Of a stretch of 64,000 nucleotides of DNA, positions 4,001-49,460 are shown one piece after another. A program made the translations under genes and the position numbers. Below the pieces are notes generated by a model. That model did not search any database. It had not been told where the DNA came from and saw only the letters and a program-made list of their open reading frames with translations. The stretch lies in assembly GCA_038831135.1 (NCBI GenBank), contig JAWBKW010000002.1:27214-91213 (forward strand). The letters are read 5' to 3'. Source of the DNA: Sulfolobales archaeon. GTDB taxonomy: Archaea > Thermoproteota > Thermoprotei_A > Sulfolobales > NBVN01. Within the stretch, counting starts at the first letter, position 1; each line of letters starts with the position of its first letter.

Positions 4001-4326
4001 GGTCCGGAGCCGGCTGGTGGTTACGGGGTGTAATCCCTGAGGAAACTCCGTCCTCCTCACGGCACCGGGACCTCGTAAGAGGTGCGGGGAGACCCGCGGC
4101 AACGGCACAGAAACGACACGCCCCACATCAAATGTCTATGATATGGTGAGGGTTAAGTAGTAATACTTGACCAGTAACCCATTGAGTATGATGTGGGGTG
4201 CGTTGAAACGGCCGACCCCCGGGGAGTAAGGCCAAGCAGTGTCTATGAATGCCGTGTGAGGCACGGGTAGGCCGCTAAGCCTAATCCACCTTAATACAGA
4301 AGACGGGTTATAGCCGGCACCGGACC
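4001..4326 (+). ncRNA. rnpB: RNase P RNA
   Basis: GC-rich island. The termini pair (ggtccggagccggc / gccggcaccggacc). CR-I-like gaggaaactccg, acggcacagaaacg and CR-V-like acagaagacgggttata are present. An internal AT-rich extended hairpin is closed by ccccacatca/tgatgtgggg. Confidence 0.8.
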
Positions 4327-5442: not shown

Positions 5443-6441
5443 ATGTCTAATCAAGCACTCATAGAATTATTGTGGGTCGAGAAATATAGACCGAAGACCC
5501 TATCTGAAATCGTTAATCATGAAGATATTATTAAAAGATTGCAACAGTTTATTAAAGAGAAGAACATGCCTCACCTCCTCTTTGCAGGACCTCCAGGCAC
5601 AGGAAAGACTACGGCAGCACATGCGTTTGCTCATGACCTTTACGGATCTGATTACAGGATGTATATGTTGGAGCTTAATGCCTCTGACGAACGCGGTATC
5701 GATATCATTAGGGGTAAGGTTAAGGAGTTTTCTAGGAGTAAATTACCTACCAACATACCCTTCAAGATAGTATTACTTGATGAGTCAGATAATATGACTG
5801 CGGATGCTCAGCAAGCACTTAGGAGGCTTATGGAAATGTATGTTGATGTAACTCGTTTTATCTTAATAGCTAATTACCCGAGTAAAATCATAGAACCTAT
5901 CCAGTCTAGGTGTGCTGTATTTAGATTCATACCCCTTAGGAAGGAGGATGTGGTTAAGAGGTTGAAATGGATCTGTATGAATGAGGGTATTAGATGTGAT
6001 GAGGAGGGTTTGGAAGTTATTCATGAGATCTCCGAAGGTGATATGAGGAAAGCCATAAACATCCTACAAGCATCAGCTAGCATAGGCGATGTTAACGTAT
6101 CAAACGTACTTAAAGTGGTTGGGCTAGCTCATCCGAGAGAGATTAGGGAGATGATACAATTAGCTTTAGAAGGTAAGTTTATTGAGGCTAGAGATAAACT
6201 TCGTGAACTTATGATTTCTTACGGCATCTCAGGAACCGATATAGTTAAGCAAGTCCATAAAGAGATATTCGGATCAGAGTTAACTATACCTGAACCTCTA
6301 AGAGTTGAAATTGCTGACTACCTAGGTGAGATACAGTTCAGATTAGTTGAAGGTGCTGATGAGGAGATTCAGTTAAATACGTTGATCGCTAAGTTAGTCT
6401 TACTTGGGAGGGCAGCTAAGAGTATTAAGCCTATGAAGTAA
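5443..6441 (+). CDS. rfcS: replication factor C small subunit
   Basis: 332 aa. WVEKYRP box, Walker A GPPGTGKTT, DEAD-like LLDESD and SRC motif (IQSRCAVFRF). Confidence 0.95.
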   Translation: MSNQALIELLWVEKYRPKTLSEIVNHEDIIKRLQQFIKEKNMPHLLFAGPPGTGKTTAAHAFAHDLYGSDYRMYMLELNASDERGIDIIRGKVKEFSRSKLPTNIPFKIVLLDESDNMTADAQQALRRLMEMYVDVTRFILIANYPSKIIEPIQSRCAVFRFIPLRKEDVVKRLKWICMNEGIRCDEEGLEVIHEISEGDMRKAINILQASASIGDVNVSNVLKVVGLAHPREIREMIQLALEGKFIEARDKLRELMISYGISGTDIVKQVHKEIFGSELTIPEPLRVEIADYLGEIQFRLVEGADEEIQLNTLIAKLVLLGRAAKSIKPMK

Positions 6442-6453
6442 TGGGGTTAAAGT

Positions 6454-7845
6454 TTGAGGAAGCTACCTTGGGTAATAAAGTATAGACCTAAGAAATTAAT
6501 TGATGTAGTTAATCAAGAAAAAGCTAAAGAAGAACTTACTGAGTGGATAGAATCATGGCTTAAAGGTACTCCTAAAGAACGTGCAGTACTTCTCTACGGC
6601 CCACCGGGATGTGGAAAGACGAGCTTAACAGAAGCTCTAGCAAACGAGTACGGATTTGATTTTATTGAGATGAATGCTAGCGATTATAGAAGGAAGGTTG
6701 ACCTCGATCGTATTGCACGGGTCGCGGCACTTCAGAGAAGTATAACAGGTAGGGGTAAGCTAATACTACTAGATGAGGTTGATGGGATCTCAGGTACAGC
6801 AGATGTTGGTGCTCTAGAAACCATCCTAGACATAATTAAAATCACTTTTAACCCCATCATGATGACTGCTAACGATCCTTGGGACCCTAAGTTGAGACCT
6901 CTGAGAGATGCTGTAAAGCTAGTTGAGTTTCGAAGACTTACTAAAACAGATGTGAAGAAAGTACTCACGCGAATATGTAATGATGAGAAATTAGTGTGTG
7001 ATGAGGATGCCTTAGACTTCATTGCTGAGAGATGTGAGGGTGACTTAAGATCGGCGATCAATGATGTGGAAGCTGTTGCCGAGGGTTATGGTAAGGTCAC
7101 TCTCGAATTGGTTAAAAGTATATTAAGGCAAAGGGATAGAGAATACGAACCATTCGAAATTGTTAGGAAGATCTTCATATCTAAGTATGCATGGCAGGCT
7201 AAGCAAGTGACTCAGCAGACAGACCTAACACCTGACGAACTCATTCAATGGATTAATGAGAATTTACCTAGGCAAATTTCAGATCCTGAGGACTTATGGC
7301 GTGCATACGATTATCTCTCAAAAGCTGACGTTTATATGGGTAGGATAGTTAAAACAGGTAATTGGGACCTACTTTCATACGCTGTTGAATTAATGTCTGC
7401 GGGAGTATCACTATCAATAATCAATGATGTGAAAAGTAAGTATAGATGGGTTAAATACAGCTTCCCACAGAAAGTGTTGATAACGGCTAGAACTAAGGAA
7501 ACCAGACAATTAAGAGATGAATTATCTGAAGTAATAGCTAAGCATTTAAACATATCTAAGTCTGTATCTAAATCTGACGTTATTCCGTACATTAGGGTAA
7601 TTTTCAATTCTAATGCTGAGGTCGCAGCTAAGTTAGCTTTAAGTTTAAACCTGTCAGAAAGTATGATTAGGTACCTCTCACCTCAAAACTCATCTAGGAT
7701 TCTTGAAGTCATGAATAAACTTAAGACAGAACTTAGTAAAACTGGTGGGAAATCTAAGGAAGAGAAAATGAGTGAGAAGAGAAAAGACGTTAAAAGTGGT
7801 AGAGCTGGGACTCTAGACAGTTACTTCAGAAATAAATCCCGTTAG
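6454..7845 (+). CDS. rfcL: replication factor C large subunit
   Basis: 463 aa. PWVIKYRP box, GPPGCGKTS, LLDEVD and a basic C-terminal tail. TTG start. Confidence 0.9.
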   Translation: MRKLPWVIKYRPKKLIDVVNQEKAKEELTEWIESWLKGTPKERAVLLYGPPGCGKTSLTEALANEYGFDFIEMNASDYRRKVDLDRIARVAALQRSITGRGKLILLDEVDGISGTADVGALETILDIIKITFNPIMMTANDPWDPKLRPLRDAVKLVEFRRLTKTDVKKVLTRICNDEKLVCDEDALDFIAERCEGDLRSAINDVEAVAEGYGKVTLELVKSILRQRDREYEPFEIVRKIFISKYAWQAKQVTQQTDLTPDELIQWINENLPRQISDPEDLWRAYDYLSKADVYMGRIVKTGNWDLLSYAVELMSAGVSLSIINDVKSKYRWVKYSFPQKVLITARTKETRQLRDELSEVIAKHLNISKSVSKSDVIPYIRVIFNSNAEVAAKLALSLNLSESMIRYLSPQNSSRILEVMNKLKTELSKTGGKSKEEKMSEKRKDVKSGRAGTLDSYFRNKSR

Positions 7846-36941: not shown

Positions 36942-38066
36942 TTGACGGTTAAGATGAGGATTGGTGTAGTAGGAGGCGGTATTGGAGGGTTACTCGCTGG
37001 TGTTAAGATCTCTGACTCATGCGATGTAGATTTGTATGAGGAGCATTACTCGGTAGGATATCCTAAACACTGTACTGGATTAATCAGTGAGAGGGTCCTT
37101 AACTACTTAGGTAGTGAGGTCAGGAACTACGTACTAAACAGTTTCGATAATTATGTTCTTATTCATACGCTGAGGCCTGCTAAAGAGTTGAGGCTTAAGT
37201 TTAGGGACACTATTCACTTGATTGACAGACCCGCAACTGAGAAGTACTTAAGCGAAGAGTTTCAAGGCCGTAGAGGTTCACTGAAGTTAGGTTTAAAGGT
37301 CAACTCAATAAATTCGGAGACTACTTCATTGATTGTAGGGGATGGATCAACTCTTAAATATGATGTTATAATCGTTGCTGAAGGTGCCAGGGCAATATTA
37401 ACGAAGTCTCTAGGGATGTGTAGTAACGTAACCTACCTTGTAGGGATACAGTCGCTTATCAAGCTTAATAACGATCTAGACAGTCCTTACGTTTTTTTCG
37501 GTGACGATATCAGTCATGAATTCTTTGGGTGGGCTGTCCCCGCAAACGGTAAAGAATTAATTGTTGGATTCGCAGACCGTTACGTAAGTTATTCAAGATT
37601 AAATCACTTAATAAAAACTTACCTAATTAGGAAATTAGGGATTAATGAGTTAACAATTAAGGAGGTCTTCGGTGGGTTAATACCTATATCAAAACCATGT
37701 AAACAAACCTTAGGTAGTATTATAGGTATCGGTGACGCTGTTTCTGTGGTGAAGCCCTTAAGTGGTGGTGGTGTATACGGTATCGCTAATCAGGTAAAAG
37801 TATTGAAGGAATCGCTGAGTAGTGATTCACTCGAACTTGTATTTGAGAGGTATAATAAGGGATTAATAAACTTAATAACGACTCTTAAGATACAGCACAT
37901 ACTTAGGAGATTTATTAGTAAGAGATTTAATAGTTTAAGTAATTTTGTCATGAAGCTTATAGATTCTGGGATTAACGAAATCACAATATCGAATTACGAT
38001 AAATATGTACCTAACTTATTGGACCTTAGAAATAATCTCAAAATTTTTAGCTCCTTCATTATATAG
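36942..38066 (+). CDS. FAD-dependent oxidoreductase, geranylgeranyl reductase family
   Basis: 374 aa. Dinucleotide fold MRIGVVGGGIGGLLAG and GDA motif IIGIGDAVSVVKPLSGGG. Confidence 0.65.
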   Translation: MTVKMRIGVVGGGIGGLLAGVKISDSCDVDLYEEHYSVGYPKHCTGLISERVLNYLGSEVRNYVLNSFDNYVLIHTLRPAKELRLKFRDTIHLIDRPATEKYLSEEFQGRRGSLKLGLKVNSINSETTSLIVGDGSTLKYDVIIVAEGARAILTKSLGMCSNVTYLVGIQSLIKLNNDLDSPYVFFGDDISHEFFGWAVPANGKELIVGFADRYVSYSRLNHLIKTYLIRKLGINELTIKEVFGGLIPISKPCKQTLGSIIGIGDAVSVVKPLSGGGVYGIANQVKVLKESLSSDSLELVFERYNKGLINLITTLKIQHILRRFISKRFNSLSNFVMKLIDSGINEITISNYDKYVPNLLDLRNNLKIFSSFII

Positions 38067-39084
38067 GTCGCTACATCGTCCGCAAACTCTTTCGTTTTTA
38101 AACGGCCTTACCCACGATCATTGTGGTGGACTGAAGATAGCGGTATGTAGTGAATGCGGTAGTGGCACTGCTACGGTATTTCAGAAACACAGTGGTAAGT
38201 TATTGTGTAGTAAGTGTTTCATAGAAGATTTAATACTTCGTGTATCTAATGAAGTTCGCAAATATGATATGTTTCGCCCTAACGATAGGTTACTACTCGC
38301 CGTTTCTGGTGGTAAGGACAGTTTCGTACTCCTAAATATTATTTCGAGGATGCACGAACCAAGTAGGTTAGGAGTTATTACGGTATCTGAAGGTATAGAA
38401 GGTTATAATAGGGATGAGGACGTTTATTGGGCTCTAAAGAGTAGTAAGGAATTAGGCGTAGATTATATTAAGACGTCGTTTAAGGAGGTAGTGGGCTATA
38501 GCCTTAACGATTTAGTAGATATGTCGCTCAGGTCGAATTTTAATGTAAGTCCGTGCACCTTCTGCGGTATGTTGAGGCGGAGAATAATTAATAAATTTGC
38601 CAGAGAATTAGGGTATGATAAAGTGTTAACGGCTCATAACTTAGATGATGAATCTCAAACAGCATTCATAAATATATTAAGGGGTGACCTAAGTAGGCTA
38701 CTTCAGTCACACCCCAGAGGTCCGAGATTAAGCGAACTATTCATTAGGAGGGTGAAGCCTCTTAGGAAAATCTATGAATGGGAATGCGCTCTATACGCGT
38801 ACTTAAACGGATTTAAATTTCAAGAAGTTGAGTGCCCGTACATAATTAACAGACCTACTCTGAGGGCTAAGGTAAGAGAGTACTTATATAGGTTAGAGAG
38901 TGTTAAGCCAGGGACCCTTCTAAAATTCCTAAACTTCGTAGATGGTTTAATGATTAAATACTTCGACTTCTCTAACACATTACCGAATCTTCCCTTATGT
39001 AGTATTTGCGGGGAACCTACAGCTTACGGAAGAACTATATGCAAGACCTGCGAATTACTTATTAAGGTGGGTATCATTTTATGA
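38005..39084 (+). CDS. tRNA 2-thiolation PP-loop ATPase (TtuA/NcsA/Ctu1-like)
   Basis: N-terminal zinc finger CSECG...CSKCF, PP-loop LLAVSGGKDS, and C-terminal CSICG...CKTCE. The ATG at 38005 overlaps the upstream gene by 62 nt. The homologous N-terminus begins near 38131-38146. Confidence 0.8.
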   Translation: MYLTYWTLEIISKFLAPSLYRSLHRPQTLSFLNGLTHDHCGGLKIAVCSECGSGTATVFQKHSGKLLCSKCFIEDLILRVSNEVRKYDMFRPNDRLLLAVSGGKDSFVLLNIISRMHEPSRLGVITVSEGIEGYNRDEDVYWALKSSKELGVDYIKTSFKEVVGYSLNDLVDMSLRSNFNVSPCTFCGMLRRRIINKFARELGYDKVLTAHNLDDESQTAFINILRGDLSRLLQSHPRGPRLSELFIRRVKPLRKIYEWECALYAYLNGFKFQEVECPYIINRPTLRAKVREYLYRLESVKPGTLLKFLNFVDGLMIKYFDFSNTLPNLPLCSICGEPTAYGRTICKTCELLIKVGIIL

Positions 39085-39668
39085 AGGTTGATAGGGAGTT
39101 ATGGATTAAGAGGAAGGAAATAATGTATAAGAGGTTGTTAGAAGATCTCCACATAGGTTACTTAGATGAGGATATATCGGATTTACTCATAAAGATCTTT
39201 GAGAGAGAGAACGCTTTTACTATCAGTTCATGTAGCGGTAGGATAATATTCGTTGATGCTCAACTGCCTTGGGTGAGAAAGACTTCTACGGTAATCTTTA
39301 AGAAGCATAAACCTATAACTATTGAGGAATATCTAGAGGCTCTCAATAAGCCTGTTCTATATAAATTATGGGTAATTGTTACAGGCCCCATACTCCACAT
39401 ATCAACAGCAACTTTAAAGGAAGCGCTTAAGTTAATCTCCGTAGGTAGGGCTGCAGGATTCAAACATAGCGGCATTATAAGTTTTAGGAGGGATGGAATA
39501 GTGTTAGAACTAAAGGGTGGTATAGGACTTACCTACATTATTAAGAGCGGTAATAAGCTATTAATAGACCTTAACAACGTAGCTGAGGTGGTAAACACCT
39601 GCAACAACGTCTTGATGAAGGGTAAGGAAAGGCTTAACCGTCTTATGGAGATGCTTAGTAAGCTCTAA
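39081..39668 (+). CDS. taw3: tRNA wyosine-derivative methyltransferase Taw3 (TYW3 homolog)
   Basis: 195 aa. TISSCSGRI motif and GFKHSGII. Confidence 0.7.
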   Translation: MKVDRELWIKRKEIMYKRLLEDLHIGYLDEDISDLLIKIFERENAFTISSCSGRIIFVDAQLPWVRKTSTVIFKKHKPITIEEYLEALNKPVLYKLWVIVTGPILHISTATLKEALKLISVGRAAGFKHSGIISFRRDGIVLELKGGIGLTYIIKSGNKLLIDLNNVAEVVNTCNNVLMKGKERLNRLMEMLSKL

Positions 39669-39698: not shown

Positions 39699-41516
39699 CT
39701 AGTCTTCAGATTCTTCAATAGGTGCCTCGTAGAAGTACTCACCTATGGATTTTTGGTACCTATCTAAGTAGCTATTAGGTTTATTTATTCTAGGCCTCCC
39801 AGTCCTCCGGTCTCTTCTGAAGGTTATCTCCAAATCCCTAAGGAAGGTGTTCATGCCACGTTTAAGGCTTGTTGGACTAGATGCCTTGCCTTGTACGCCG
39901 GGAGTACCGCTAAATACTATTATATTATCGGCTATATTATCTATTATTGTTAGGTCATGATCTACGACGAAAGCCACAGCCTTCCTAACCTCTACTACCT
40001 TCTTAATCGCCTTACATATAGTTAATCTCTCCTCAACGTCTATGAAGGCTGAAGGCTCATCTAGAAGGTAGATATCTGCATCCTTAGCCAAAGCAGCAGC
40101 TATGGCGAATTTCTGTAACTCACCGCCACTTAATTCGTTAATACCTCTTAGATAAAGTTTATGTAGGTTCAACCTCTTAATAACGTCATTTTGGAACCAG
40201 TCACTACATGCTAGTTGTGAGGATTTGCAGAGTTCTTTAAAAGCTTCTTCAACATTACTCCATTCAAAAAGTTCTGTCTTAACGTACTGGGGTTTATGGC
40301 TTATCCTGAGGTTGTTCATCGTTAAGTAACCCTCATCAGGTTCAATCTCCCCAGCAAGTAATTTTATGAAAGTTGTTTTACCTATAGCATTAGGTCCAAC
40401 TATGCCTAAAACCTCCCCCTTACTGACGTTGCCTTCCTCCACATTTAACTCAAATCCGTTTAATAATTTCCTCAACTTTGGCCATTTAATGAATTCTTCC
40501 TCAGGTCTTTCACTAACTCCCACCCCGAATTTGTTGAATGTTATTGGTTCTGGTCGTATTCTCATATTCTCTGATGGGAGATAACCTGTTAAGAAGTTAT
40601 TAACTCCAGACCCTACGGAGTAAACCTTAGAAAATATACCGAAGACTCCAGGCTCACCGTAAACTATTGATACGTAATCGGATACGTAATCAAGTATGGT
40701 TAGATCATGTTCAACAACGATTACGTATTTATTCTTAATGATCTCCCTAATAGCTCTAGATATTCTTAATCTCTCGTAGATGTCTAAATAGCTTGAAGGT
40801 TCATCAAAGAAAAAGACGTCAGCATCTCGTAATAACGCTGCGGCTATGGCGAATTTCTGTAACTCACCGCCACTCAGGGTGGATACATTATTATTCCAAC
40901 AACTATCTAAGTTTATATACTTACGTACTTCTTGCGCCACACCCTTTTCATCAATTCTATTTATGACGTCTTTTACGACACCCTTCACATACTTTCTAAT
41001 TATATCTACATGTTGAATTTTATGAACAACTCGTAGTTCCTTATTAACTAACTTACTTAAGTATTGGTACATTTCACTTCCTCTATAAAATTTGAGGGCA
41101 GAATCCCACGATGGTGGAGAATCTAAATTACCTAAATTAGGTATAACTTCTCCTGAAAGTATTTTAATAGCTGTAGTTTTACCTATACCGTTCTTTCCAA
41201 CAATACCTAAGACTTTACCACTTATTGGTGTTGGGAGTCCGTAAAGCTTGAAGGAATTAACACCATATCTATGAACAAGCTTCTTCTCAAACTCGTCAGG
41301 TAGATTAGTGACCGTTATAGCAGTGTATGGGCATTTCCTAACACATATGCCGCAACCCACACATACTAGTTCATAGATAACTGGTTTACCTTCCTTAGAC
41401 TGAGAGAGTTCTATAGCTTTAGAACCAGATCTGTTTATAGGGCAAAACCTAACGCACTCTAAGTTGCATTTATCAGGTCTACACAGGTCGTAGTCTATTA
41501 CTGCAATCCTAACCAT
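39699..41516 (-). CDS. ABCE1 / RNase L inhibitor ribosome-recycling ATPase
   Basis: 605 aa. N-terminal double 4Fe-4S domain (CRPDKCNLECVRFCP, CVGCGICVRKCP) and two ABC cassettes (GKNGIGKTT, GPNAIGKTT, and LSGGELQ twice). Confidence 0.95.
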   Translation of the reverse strand: MVRIAVIDYDLCRPDKCNLECVRFCPINRSGSKAIELSQSKEGKPVIYELVCVGCGICVRKCPYTAITVTNLPDEFEKKLVHRYGVNSFKLYGLPTPISGKVLGIVGKNGIGKTTAIKILSGEVIPNLGNLDSPPSWDSALKFYRGSEMYQYLSKLVNKELRVVHKIQHVDIIRKYVKGVVKDVINRIDEKGVAQEVRKYINLDSCWNNNVSTLSGGELQKFAIAAALLRDADVFFFDEPSSYLDIYERLRISRAIREIIKNKYVIVVEHDLTILDYVSDYVSIVYGEPGVFGIFSKVYSVGSGVNNFLTGYLPSENMRIRPEPITFNKFGVGVSERPEEEFIKWPKLRKLLNGFELNVEEGNVSKGEVLGIVGPNAIGKTTFIKLLAGEIEPDEGYLTMNNLRISHKPQYVKTELFEWSNVEEAFKELCKSSQLACSDWFQNDVIKRLNLHKLYLRGINELSGGELQKFAIAAALAKDADIYLLDEPSAFIDVEERLTICKAIKKVVEVRKAVAFVVDHDLTIIDNIADNIIVFSGTPGVQGKASSPTSLKRGMNTFLRDLEITFRRDRRTGRPRINKPNSYLDRYQKSIGEYFYEAPIEESED

Positions 41517-41566
41517 TGCTACCTCCGTAACAACTTATAAGCATTCCTACTAAATATAGTTAGTAG

Positions 41567-41620
41567 ATGATGAATGGTGACGGCTTGGACCTTAGATGGC
41601 ATTAAATAAATCACCACTGA
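41567..41620 (+). ncRNA. possible C/D box sRNA (weak internal boxes)
   Basis: C ATGATGA, 12-nt atggtgacggct, D' TGGA, degenerate C' region ccttagatggcat, then D CTGA. 54 nt in total. Confidence 0.3.
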
Positions 41621-41694
41621 CCGACTATTATTTCTCTTTTTAGAATATGGGTAATTTAAATACTTTAATAAAAAGAACCTAAGGTTTCACTTAC

Positions 41695-41781
41695 CTACCA
41701 CTCTTCTTCCTCCCACTCTTCCTCTTCTTCCTCCCACCACTCTTCCTCCTCTTCTTCCTCCCACCACTCCTCTTCAAACAT
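41695..41781 (-). repeat. purine-rich (GAR/TGG) tandem repeat that is also a 28-aa Glu/Trp micro-ORF
   Basis: The minus strand reads ATG TTT (GAR)n TGG TGG ... TAG, giving MFEEEWWEEEEEEEWWEEEEEEWEEEEW. About three imperfect units of 24-30 nt. A TATA-like ttatatattt lies about 30-38 nt upstream and a T-tract follows the stop. Confidence 0.5.
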
Positions 41782-41983
41782 TTAAATCACTCACACCTAA
41801 CTACAAACTCAAATATATAAGTTTTTACTAAGTGGGGATCTGTGTTGACCAACGCTTCACACCTTTAGAAGTGGTACACGAATTATAATACTTATTGTAG
41901 GTCTCCGAACCTAGTCCACCAACTCTAACTTATAAGGTATATAAACCACACCAACGAATGTTATCAGGTAATACTAAAGGTGC

Positions 41984-42157
41984 ATGCCTATGCCTGTCAC
42001 GGACCCGTTCAAGAGTAAGATAGTTGAGGAGAGGTTGCTAAATAAGTCTATCTGTAGAAGATGTGGTGCTAGAAATCCGCCGGGAGCTGTCAAATGCCGT
42101 AGATGTAAAAGTAGGAATTTAAGACCTAAGAAGAGATTCGGAGGTAAGAAGAGTTAG
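41984..42157 (+). CDS. rpl40e: ribosomal protein L40e (eL40)
   Basis: Not in the ORF track; hand-translated to [57 protein letters not shown]. The CRRCG...CRRC zinc ribbon is typical of L40e. The start may be 41990. Confidence 0.8.
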
Positions 42158-42888: not shown

Positions 42889-42978
42889 GCCGGGGTGGCC
42901 GAGCGGCCTAAGGCGGCGGGCTGCAGTGATCGTTAGAAACCCGTTAATTCGCGGGTTCGAATCCCGCCCCCGGCTCCA
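42889..42978 (+). tRNA. tRNA-Cys (GCA) with 12-nt canonical (37/38) intron, CCA encoded
   Basis: Acceptor GCCGGGG/CCCCGGC, discriminator T (the Cys identity element), anticodon stem GCGGG/CCCGT. The loop is CTGCAG[tgatcgttagaa]A. T-arm GCGGGTTCGAATCCCGC. Confidence 0.8.

Positions 42979-49363: not shown

Positions 49364-49460
<97 letters not shown>

Follow-up and report, generated by a model that had tools for sequence, protein, structure and literature searches.

A previously unannotated Glu/Asp- and Trp-rich micro-gene is a conserved genomic partner of ABCE1 in Sulfolobales and Bathyarchaeia

ABCE1 (RLI), the ribosome-recycling ATPase, ranks among the most highly conserved proteins of archaea and eukaryotes, and among the most essential. 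Several described peptides and protein tails come close to the ABCE1-linked micro-gene reported here, in composition, in position or in their tie to ABCE1. MgtL lies inside the mgtA leader transcript and acts through alternative RNA structures and Rho, and TnaC depends on Trp. Acidic disordered polyanions such as prothymosin-alpha are suited to highly basic partners. In ORFs with N-terminal D/E runs, bulky residues modulate the effect of the run (PMC9718836; bioRxiv 10.1101/2021.02.02.429294). The archaeal ribosomal stalk protein aP1 has an acidic C-terminal tail whose last L, L and F residues enter a cavity of ABCE1 nucleotide-binding domain 1 (NBD1), which activates the ATPase (PMC6125642). 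This tail also binds the translational GTPases. Maturation of Rli1 depends on the conserved Trp at the C-terminus of Lto1, a Phe in some organisms (PMC4523923).

In the present analysis we describe a micro-gene located 5' of ABCE1 in a 64-kb window (the whole stretch of DNA analysed, 64,000 nucleotides) of a Sulfolobales archaeon. It is a member of a family with Glu/Asp and Trp composition that is previously unannotated and fits no known family or system. We compared its relatives in archaeal genomes and in metagenomes, asked whether the open frame or the underlying nucleic acid is conserved, and weighed the functions that such a peptide could have.

A Glu/Trp micro-ORF between ABCE1 and L40e

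A sequence-only reading of the window had noted an intact ATG...TAG frame of Glu and Trp codons on the minus strand, and the frame is confirmed with a length of 28 aa (Table 1). After ATG and TTT it consists of GAA/GAG and TGG codons only, followed by TAG, and the product contains one M, one F, 20 E and 6 W. An in-frame TAA stands immediately 5' of the ATG. Tandem Repeats Finder reports a repeat with a period of 27 at 41701-41773 (3.0 copies, 84% matches, score 95). Purines make up 87% of the DNA of the ORF, their longest uninterrupted stretch measures 23 nt, and GGAGG occurs four times. No second ORF of like Glu/Trp composition is found within the 64-kb window, and the tail pattern [DE][DE]W[DE]4W-stop matches once in the window and not at all in 100 dinucleotide shuffles.

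Table 1. Positions of the micro-ORF, its candidate signals and its neighbours in the window
Feature	Position	Strand	Remarks
Micro-ORF encoding MFEEEWWEEEEEEEWWEEEEEEWEEEEW, then stop	41695..41781	-	ATG to TAG; 28 aa
BRE/TATA-like putative promoter of the micro-gene (gtaaaaac ttatatattt)	41811..41828	-	30-47 nt 5' of ATG; read from sequence
Shine-Dalgarno-like GGTGTGAGTGAT	41786..41797	-	5-16 nt before micro-ORF ATG
Short hairpin (aacct t aggtt), then cTTTTTatt; likely archaeal T-tract terminator	41667..41686	-	predicted from sequence
ABCE1's own TATA-like boxes (ctatattta, cttataag) and GGAGG 5' of its ATG	41533..41558	-	
ABCE1 (RLI), ribosome-recycling ATPase	39699..41516	-	conserved downstream neighbour; sequence and structure matches
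L40e	41984-42157	+	divergent, 5' of micro-gene
Probable C/D-box sRNA in the micro-gene/ABCE1 spacer	41560..41622	+	opposite strand; neighbour, not part of peptide gene

The TATA-like element, GGTG and T-tract that had been reported to flank the ORF were each found where described, with ttatatattt at 41820-41811 and GGTG at 41797-41794. A promoter block, GTAAAAACTTATATATT, is near-invariant across loci L001-L005, L012 and L013. The proposal that the ORF forms an independent small transcription unit is supported by these promoter, Shine-Dalgarno (SD) and T-tract signals, of which the promoter and terminator are putative assignments.

ABCE1 starts 178 nt 3' of the micro-ORF on the same strand. 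Its product is 100% identical to an RLI protein listed by NCBI for 'Sulfolobales archaeon' and matches the ABCE1 structures of S. solfataricus and P. abyssi. The sRNA candidate in the spacer combines the C box AUGAUGA with an invariant guide (GGUGACGGC) and the D box CUGA. Its conservation extends over loci L001-3, L006, L012-14 and L143-146, and its only Rfam match, to sR33, is sub-threshold (12.3 bits, E 6.9). The first description of the locus had placed the ORF between ABCE1 and L40e. Of this setting, the tie to ABCE1 is conserved, whereas L40e adjoins the micro-gene only in the closest relatives of the window.

The conserved neighbourhood is confined to the ABCE1 side of the micro-gene. 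L40e was considered as a functional partner and rejected, as it is a divergent neighbour in the closest clade (L001-L005) only. Genes 5' of the micro-gene vary by lineage, with Asparaginase_2 in many Bathyarchaeia, and Cgi121, Urm1 and S17e in several Thermoprotei.

Coding evidence, distribution and linkage to ABCE1

Four orthologues encode an identical 28-aa peptide, while their ABCE1 proteins are 84-88% identical. Any two of these four differ by 5-13 nt, and all 59 of the 59 pairwise differences fall at codon position 3, with no amino-acid change. A constraint on purine content would also permit G/A changes at positions 1 and 2, and none is seen; selection therefore acts on the peptide. In distant relatives, E is replaced by D, L, T or G, and the purine tract is interrupted by GAT, GAC, TTA, ACT and GGN codons. 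The frame, the acidity, the spacing of W and the aromatic residue next to the stop are all retained in these relatives. The peptides are 16 to 39 aa long, their ORFs differ in length by multiples of 3 only, and every member ends with an aromatic residue and a stop.

The comparison thus bears out the suggestion of a hyper-acidic, Trp-rich micropeptide. It also carries through the coding check that the sequence-only reading had proposed, in that changes between GAA and GAG are synonymous, indels are in frame, and relatives preserve both the start and the Trp-stop end. Taken together, these observations show that the micro-ORF is a genuine protein-coding gene under purifying selection, with translation signals.

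The family is absent from the resources searched. Three divergent members gave no Pfam or NCBIfam match at E up to 10, a search in which HMMER composition filters may hide weak matches. There was no match in the PDB, and a 49-aa variant had no Pfam match. In the searchable literature we found no description of a Glu/Trp micro-gene or of an ABCE1-linked small ORF, and the string WEEEEW was unmatched. The earlier statement that no such family is described agrees with these results. An exact look-up of seven peptide variants in a collection of 15 billion proteins recovered only the 30-aa Saccharolobus variant; the variants present in the collection are all of at least 30 aa and unnamed. The family has been overlooked because gene callers discard ORFs under 30 codons, and with most members below this rough cut-off it illustrates a blind spot in archaeal annotation.

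The distribution of the micro-gene was first assessed from ABCE1 itself. The ABCE1 loci of species-representative genomes, together with five further loci, were collected, and the DNA 5' of each was inspected. The micro-ORF is present in 18 of the 20 Thermoproteota loci anchored in this way, and lies upstream on the same strand in 17. Nearly all Sulfolobales and Desulfurococcaceae-type loci carry the same type of ORF in the same place, including Acidianus hospitalis (MEEDWEEDLEEEEWEDETEEDWEEDEW) and a Saccharolobus metagenome-assembled genome (MAG; MIFEEEFEEDWEEELDEDWEEEDLLEEEEW). The two remaining Thermoproteota loci, from a Fervidicoccaceae MAG and a Thermofilaceae MAG, have no micro-ORF within 4 kb of ABCE1. 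Seven Euryarchaeota and Asgard genomes (Pyrococcus abyssi, Thermococcus kodakarensis, Methanotorris igneus, Methanopyrus, Methanofastidiosum, a Methanomicrobia MAG and a Baldrarchaeia (Asgard) MAG) have none within 2.5 kb of ABCE1, a result that refers to the ABCE1 neighbourhood only and leaves room for a copy elsewhere. Nitrososphaeria, Korarchaeia, Thermoproteales, Thermofilales and Asgard were outside the survey or were covered around ABCE1 only.

A metagenome scan used the back-translated tail [DE][DE]W[DE]4W-stop as the query, without any ABCE1 information. It yielded at least 93 micro-ORFs of 16-39 aa (examples are MIFEEEDEWEEGEDEEWEEEEW, MPEEEEWEEEEEEEEWEEEEW and MEEEWEEEGGEEEGFEEEEWEEEEW), and at least 80 distinct peptides are represented over all loci. 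Among the matches listed, 78 micro-ORFs have at least 450 nt of downstream sequence. ABCE1 starts within 400 nt on the same strand in 52 of these 78, at a median spacing of 127 nt; in nine it lies further downstream on the same strand, with other genes inserted, and in 17 it is on the other strand or outside the available sequence. The modal spacing in the linked cases among these matches is 119-131 nt. Long proteins that end in ..DEDDWDDEDW were also retrieved by the scan (bacterial multihaem-cytochrome-like proteins and a DnaK) and were set aside as unrelated background. A scan of viral contigs with the tail pattern gave no match.

The ABCE1 proteins of the metagenomic loci are 46-55% identical to that of the window and form a single clade with a mean internal identity of 74%. 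NCBI names members of this clade Candidatus Bathyarchaeia, and most of the metagenomic loci listed are from Bathyarchaeia. Since both these loci and those on the Sulfolobales side carry the pair, it occurs in at least two classes of Thermoproteota. ABCE1 and the micro-gene form a conserved genomic pair in Sulfolobales sensu lato, with Desulfurococcaceae included, and in Bathyarchaeia; we consider this association solid.

Across lineages the unit has a common order, as read from the sequences: BRE/TATA, leader, SD, start, ORF, T-tract and ABCE1's own TATA. In Bathyarchaeia a near-palindrome, CGACAnnTGACGAAT, precedes the BRE/TATA box of the micro-gene. The leader is short or roughly 45 nt long, and the start codon is ATG, GTG or TTG. 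An SD-like motif lies 5' of the start in 93 of the 107 members listed, with the full GGAGGTG in 61 of the 107. In 83 of the 107 a tract of T5 or longer occurs within 70 nt past the stop, typically 20-40 nt after it. The box RTTTATAAC lies 35-50 nt 5' of every ABCE1 ATG in Bathyarchaeia, and the longer spacer of Thermoprotei also holds the opposite-strand C/D-box sRNA candidate.

The peptide has a regular layout, with an acidic run, W, 7-9 acidic residues, W, 4 acidic residues and then W (rarely F) at a free C-terminus. In the ABCE1-anchored set, 17 loci end in ..EW-COOH and one, L145, in ..EF-COOH. The C-terminal ..EEWEEEEW-stop is the best-conserved part. The N-terminus is variable, and its D/E-rich character is directly visible in the peptide sequences.

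Possible functions of the peptide

We tentatively favour, as the most likely reading, a polyanionic, Trp-anchored peptide that would act in trans on ABCE1 or on ribosome recycling. The peptide itself would then be the functional product, working on the ribosome-recycling machinery. A disordered polyanion could occupy a cationic surface whose usual ligand is RNA or an acidic tail, and ABCE1 or a factor acting alongside it are candidates for providing this surface. Hydrophobic pockets would take up the spaced Trp side chains and the Trp-carboxylate at the C-terminus; a candidate is the NBD1 cavity to which aP1 binds through its acidic tail with a hydrophobic end. The outcome would be modulated recruitment, ATPase activation or maturation of ABCE1. 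The earlier suggestion of a nucleic-acid mimic or a partner of a basic protein is plausible in this context.

The aP1 tail is a documented precedent for such binding on ABCE1 (PMC6125642), and the AIAAALLR segment of its pocket is conserved in an alignment with the ABCE1 of the window. Comparison of ABCE1 from lineages with and without the micro-ORF revealed no shared extra basic or aromatic patch, and K90, P314 and E496 alone discriminate between them, weakly. As no patch on ABCE1 co-varies with the micro-gene, the putative binding partner of the peptide is proposed from synteny, and action in trans is likewise suggested by the arrangement of the loci.

The close rival is a leader peptide that would control ABCE1 in cis by destabilising the ribosome or by sensing termination, a possibility that we find rather doubtful. 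According to this model, the poly-acidic N-terminus would destabilise the ribosome, or the Trp-stop end would resist termination or recycling. Ribosome abortion, stalling at the stop codon or unrecycled subunits could then report on recycling capacity or ribosome stability. How much read-through passes the T-tract, or how much re-initiation reaches ABCE1, would depend on the fate of the ribosome, in an autoregulatory loop like RF2 frameshifting, SecM-secA or MgtL-mgtA. The trans-acting micro-protein ranks first, and the two readings are close to each other.

The position of the ORF favours the leader. Nearly every linked locus has it upstream of ABCE1 and in the same orientation, at the modal spacing given above for the matches listed, and this immediate-upstream placement is kept far more strictly than a separately transcribed trans partner needs. 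The gene downstream encodes the very factor that splits ribosomes. In archaea, T-tract terminators are leaky, and such read-through, or re-initiation by unrecycled subunits, could close the loop. A peptide of 16-39 aa fits wholly in the exit tunnel, and conservation that is best in the C-terminal half, with a variable N-terminus, is also typical of regulatory nascent peptides. In bacteria and eukaryotes, D/E runs at the N-terminus lead to abortion of translation (PMC9718836; bioRxiv 10.1101/2021.02.02.429294), and bulky residues counteract this abortion (PMC9718836; bioRxiv 10.1101/2021.02.02.429294; PMC12673854), which would explain the interspersed Trp. By analogy, the N-terminal acidic run may also make production of the peptide inefficient, which counts against a function in trans.

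Other features argue for the trans-acting peptide and against the leader. T-tracts follow the ORF, and a conserved TATA box belonging to ABCE1 is present in every lineage. Both make a shared transcript less likely, although some read-through may occur, and in Thermoprotei the spacer is occupied by the antisense C/D-box sRNA candidate. The peptide stays conserved where toxin-antitoxin cassettes, a Zn-ribbon gene or a convergent ORF of roughly 170 aa lie between the micro-ORF and ABCE1, where the micro-ORF is inverted (L014 and L050), and in the roughly one fifth of loci listed (17 of 78) that have no ABCE1 nearby. In a Desulfurococcaceae clade (L014, L049, L115 and L117) the ORF is convergent with another gene and is thus left without a cis target. 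No conserved alternative RNA pairing was seen (z = 0.25), and intrinsic destabilisation of the ribosome is not known in archaea.

An improbable alternative is that the peptide serves ABCE1 as a minimal adaptor for Fe-S maturation or as a targeting tag. Its acidic body would attach to the cationic apo Fe-S domain and its C-terminal [DE]-[WF]-COOH would dock on a cluster-delivery protein, by analogy with eukaryotic Lto1, whose C-terminal Trp links Rli1/ABCE1 to the CIA targeting complex. The linked gene does encode a protein with two [4Fe-4S] clusters, and every locus of the ABCE1-anchored set has an aromatic residue at the C-terminus (W in 17 loci, F in one), but the peptide has neither a deca-GX3 motif nor a Gly-X3 repeat, and its position -3 is E or D in all members, not L, I or M. 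The neighbourhoods examined contain no Fe-S assembly genes, and we know of no Cia1-Cia2-Met18 targeting complex in archaea. Moreover, Lto1 is dispensable under anaerobiosis (PMC4523923), yet the anaerobic Bathyarchaeia keep the micro-gene.

It is very improbable that the selected feature is the nucleic acid, be it a purine-rich small RNA with SD sites, its CCUCC complement or a tract forming H-DNA. The copy in the window, with its four GGAGG sites, 87% purine and 23-nt purine run, invites such a view, and the sequence-only reading had offered both the repeated SD-like sites and H-DNA. Neither withstands comparison. The number of GGAGG sites varies from 0 to 6 among orthologues of identical peptide, and the longest purine run is only 13-14 nt in L007, L009, L014 and L030, the runs being interrupted by the T of each TGG. 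Substitutions are confined to codon position 3, and distant members break the purine tract and keep the peptide pattern. The RNA folds no better than shuffled sequences (z = 0.25 for the 148-nt unit). There is no Rfam match at the gathering threshold on either strand over the ORF, where one lncRNA match is at chance level (E = 9.1).

A functionless chance frame in a recently expanded tandem repeat is hardly credible, since despite the low complexity and the resemblance to a 27-nt repeat there are at least 80 distinct peptides over two archaeal classes, in which start, SD site, stop and synteny are all conserved, and shuffled sequences contain no match to the tail pattern.

Significance and comparison with known systems

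Returning to the two leading readings, the micro-gene could be an ancient, Thermoproteota-specific component of ribosome recycling. It may encode a micro-protein that tunes ABCE1 through recruitment, ATPase gating or Fe-S maturation, or else the first archaeal nascent-peptide sensor, through which ribosome stability or recycling capacity would feed back on ABCE1 expression; we regard this wider view as possible rather than probable. If the leader peptide proves true, its kind is already known and the finding is less new. In either case the micro-gene offers a concrete handle on the regulation and accessory factors of ABCE1 in archaea. The peptide can be synthesised, and the gene is carried by Saccharolobus and Acidianus loci, relatives of genetically tractable organisms. 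The micro-gene also runs against the proposed avoidance of ribosome-destabilising N-terminal acidic runs, in that it has such a run punctuated by the bulkiest residue. It is a natural test case for intrinsic ribosome destabilisation in archaea, which to our knowledge are without ABCF factors.

Acidic disordered proteins of the prothymosin-alpha type and nucleic-acid mimics share with the micro-peptide a polyanionic and probably disordered nature. They are much longer, are eukaryotic or phage-encoded and lack regular Trp anchors, and there is no sequence relationship. Lto1 (ORAOV1) and the CIA recognition tail have in common with it the terminal [DE]-[WF]-COOH and a functional tie to Rli1/ABCE1 (PMC4523923). 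Lto1, however, is a eukaryotic protein of roughly 150 aa that contains a deca-GX3 motif and pairs with Yae1, whereas the micro-peptide has no such motif.

TnaC, the fungal AAP and the plant CPuORFs are alike in having a peptide of tunnel length, conserved in its C-terminal part up to the stop codon. They are encoded in the mRNA of their own target, and none is purely Glu/Trp. MgtL of E. coli and Salmonella and other ORFs with N-terminal D/E runs resemble it as very short frames with an acidic opening, located 5' of a regulated gene. The micro-gene differs from MgtL in its T-tract and separate downstream promoter, in the absence of any alternative structure found, in its unlinked loci and in its archaeal host.

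The aP1 tail is the described element that also binds ABCE1. It ends in L-x-x-L-F-G and is tethered to a ribosome-bound protein of roughly 100 aa. The micro-peptide has no N-terminal dimerisation or P0-binding domain, and its tail is W-E4-W instead of L-x-x-L-F-(G), which sets it apart from the aP1 family. It is free-standing, with 3-6 Trp spaced 5-9 residues apart and a W-COOH end, and its binding to ABCE1 is putative. What the two share is a flexible poly-acidic stretch with a hydrophobic or aromatic end, which in aP1 binds ABCE1 and activates its ATPase (PMC6125642).

An antisense sRNA candidate and other RNA genes

The spacer between the Glu/Trp micro-gene and ABCE1, the ribosome-recycling ATPase gene, probably holds an antisense C/D-box sRNA, as judged from boxes and guide read in the sequence (Table). 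The C box of this candidate is AUGAUGA, the D box CUGA, and the D' box UGGA in the window versus CUGA in the compared locus L145, from a Thermoprotei MAG. The guide, GGUGACGGC(U), is invariant, and a methylation target would carry its complement, AGCCGUCACCAC. The candidate also occurs upstream of ABCE1 in loci L001-L003, L006, L012-L014 and L143-L146; its only Rfam match, sR33, is sub-threshold (12.3 bits, E 6.9). The window also holds genes for an archaeal RNase P RNA, a TtuA-like PP-loop protein and the tRNA-modification protein TYW3, and two over-long tRNA genes, both of which probably contain introns; for one of the two, no anticodon could be assigned by ARAGORN.

Features in the window and in compared loci
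Feature	Sequence	Position	Strand	Remark
C/D-box sRNA candidate	window	41560-41622	+	C box, guide, D' box and D box read from sequence
Over-long tRNA gene	window	42889-42978	+	
Over-long tRNA gene	window	49364-49460	-	
Archaeal RNase P RNA	window	4005-4322	+	226.7 bits
TtuA-like PP-loop gene and TYW3 tRNA-modification gene	window	38005-39668		just 3' of ABCE1
Zinc-ribbon gene	L117	~6345-6650		
Zinc-ribbon gene	L146	2105-2356		
Asparaginase_2 gene	L138	1553-2491		directly adjoins ABCE1
Longer relative MDWEDLKRRLGELRMESEEDEDEDWDEDFGEEDWGESEDWEEDWEEEEW	L036	end ~9641	-	
Longer relative MDWEDLKRRLGELRMESEEDEDEDWDEDFGEEDWGESEDWEEDWEEEEW	L079	2113-2139 region		
Micro-protein variant	L145	2135-2227		

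Gene order and promoter region around the micro-gene

In a Baldrarchaeia (Asgard) MAG, L138, ABCE1 is directly adjoined by a gene for Asparaginase_2 (isoaspartyl peptidase), and a copy of this gene is found ~130 nt 5' of the micro-ORF in many Bathyarchaeia (L020, L031, L043, L074, L089, L106, L121, L127). The micro-gene therefore looks like a later insertion into an older Asparaginase_2-ABCE1 pair. In Bathyarchaeia, small mobile modules seem to have a hotspot in the interval between micro-gene and ABCE1, where small RHH-plus-PIN (VapBC-like) cassettes and pairs of ~70-aa and ~133-aa ORFs are repeatedly inserted (L065, L066, L068, L098, L100; upstream instead in L103). Several Thermoproteota (L011, L014, L117, L146, L113) carry, directly 5' of ABCE1, a gene for a zinc-ribbon protein of the RPB9/TFIIB type, ~85-100 aa long with an acidic C-terminal tail (..EYYEVFLE..EE..), which either replaces the micro-ORF or separates it from ABCE1, depending on the locus.

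A near-palindrome, CGACAnnTGACGAAT, is conserved ~60-90 nt 5' of the micro-ORF start in Bathyarchaeia loci (e.g. L020, L028, L030, L090, L091), where it stands directly 5' of the micro-gene's AAAATGTTTAAA TATA box, and may be a transcription-factor operator. The leader of ~45 nt in these loci carries a small conserved hairpin, GCTT-TCATT-AAGC, in either orientation.

Relatives and similar C-terminal tails

The L145 variant, 30 aa long and picked up by the gene caller without annotation, ends in ..WEEF; what closes the micro-protein is thus an aromatic residue, W or F, and not strictly Trp. A longer relative of 49 aa, MDWEDLKRRLGELRMESEEDEDEDWDEDFGEEDWGESEDWEEDWEEEEW, from hot-spring metagenomes with a GC content of 25% (L036, L079), lies 32 nt 5' of aIF1A and ArgRS, not ABCE1, again a neighbourhood of translation factors. 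Similar acidic-Trp tails (..GYDF..EDEDDWDDEDW) also end unrelated bacterial proteins, namely CxxCH-rich, multihaem-cytochrome-like proteins of 450-1000 aa (L037, L053, L056, L064, L107, L122, L132) and a DnaK (L108). The finding points to a C-terminal module, an acidic tail with W-COOH at its end, that recurs beyond the archaea as well.
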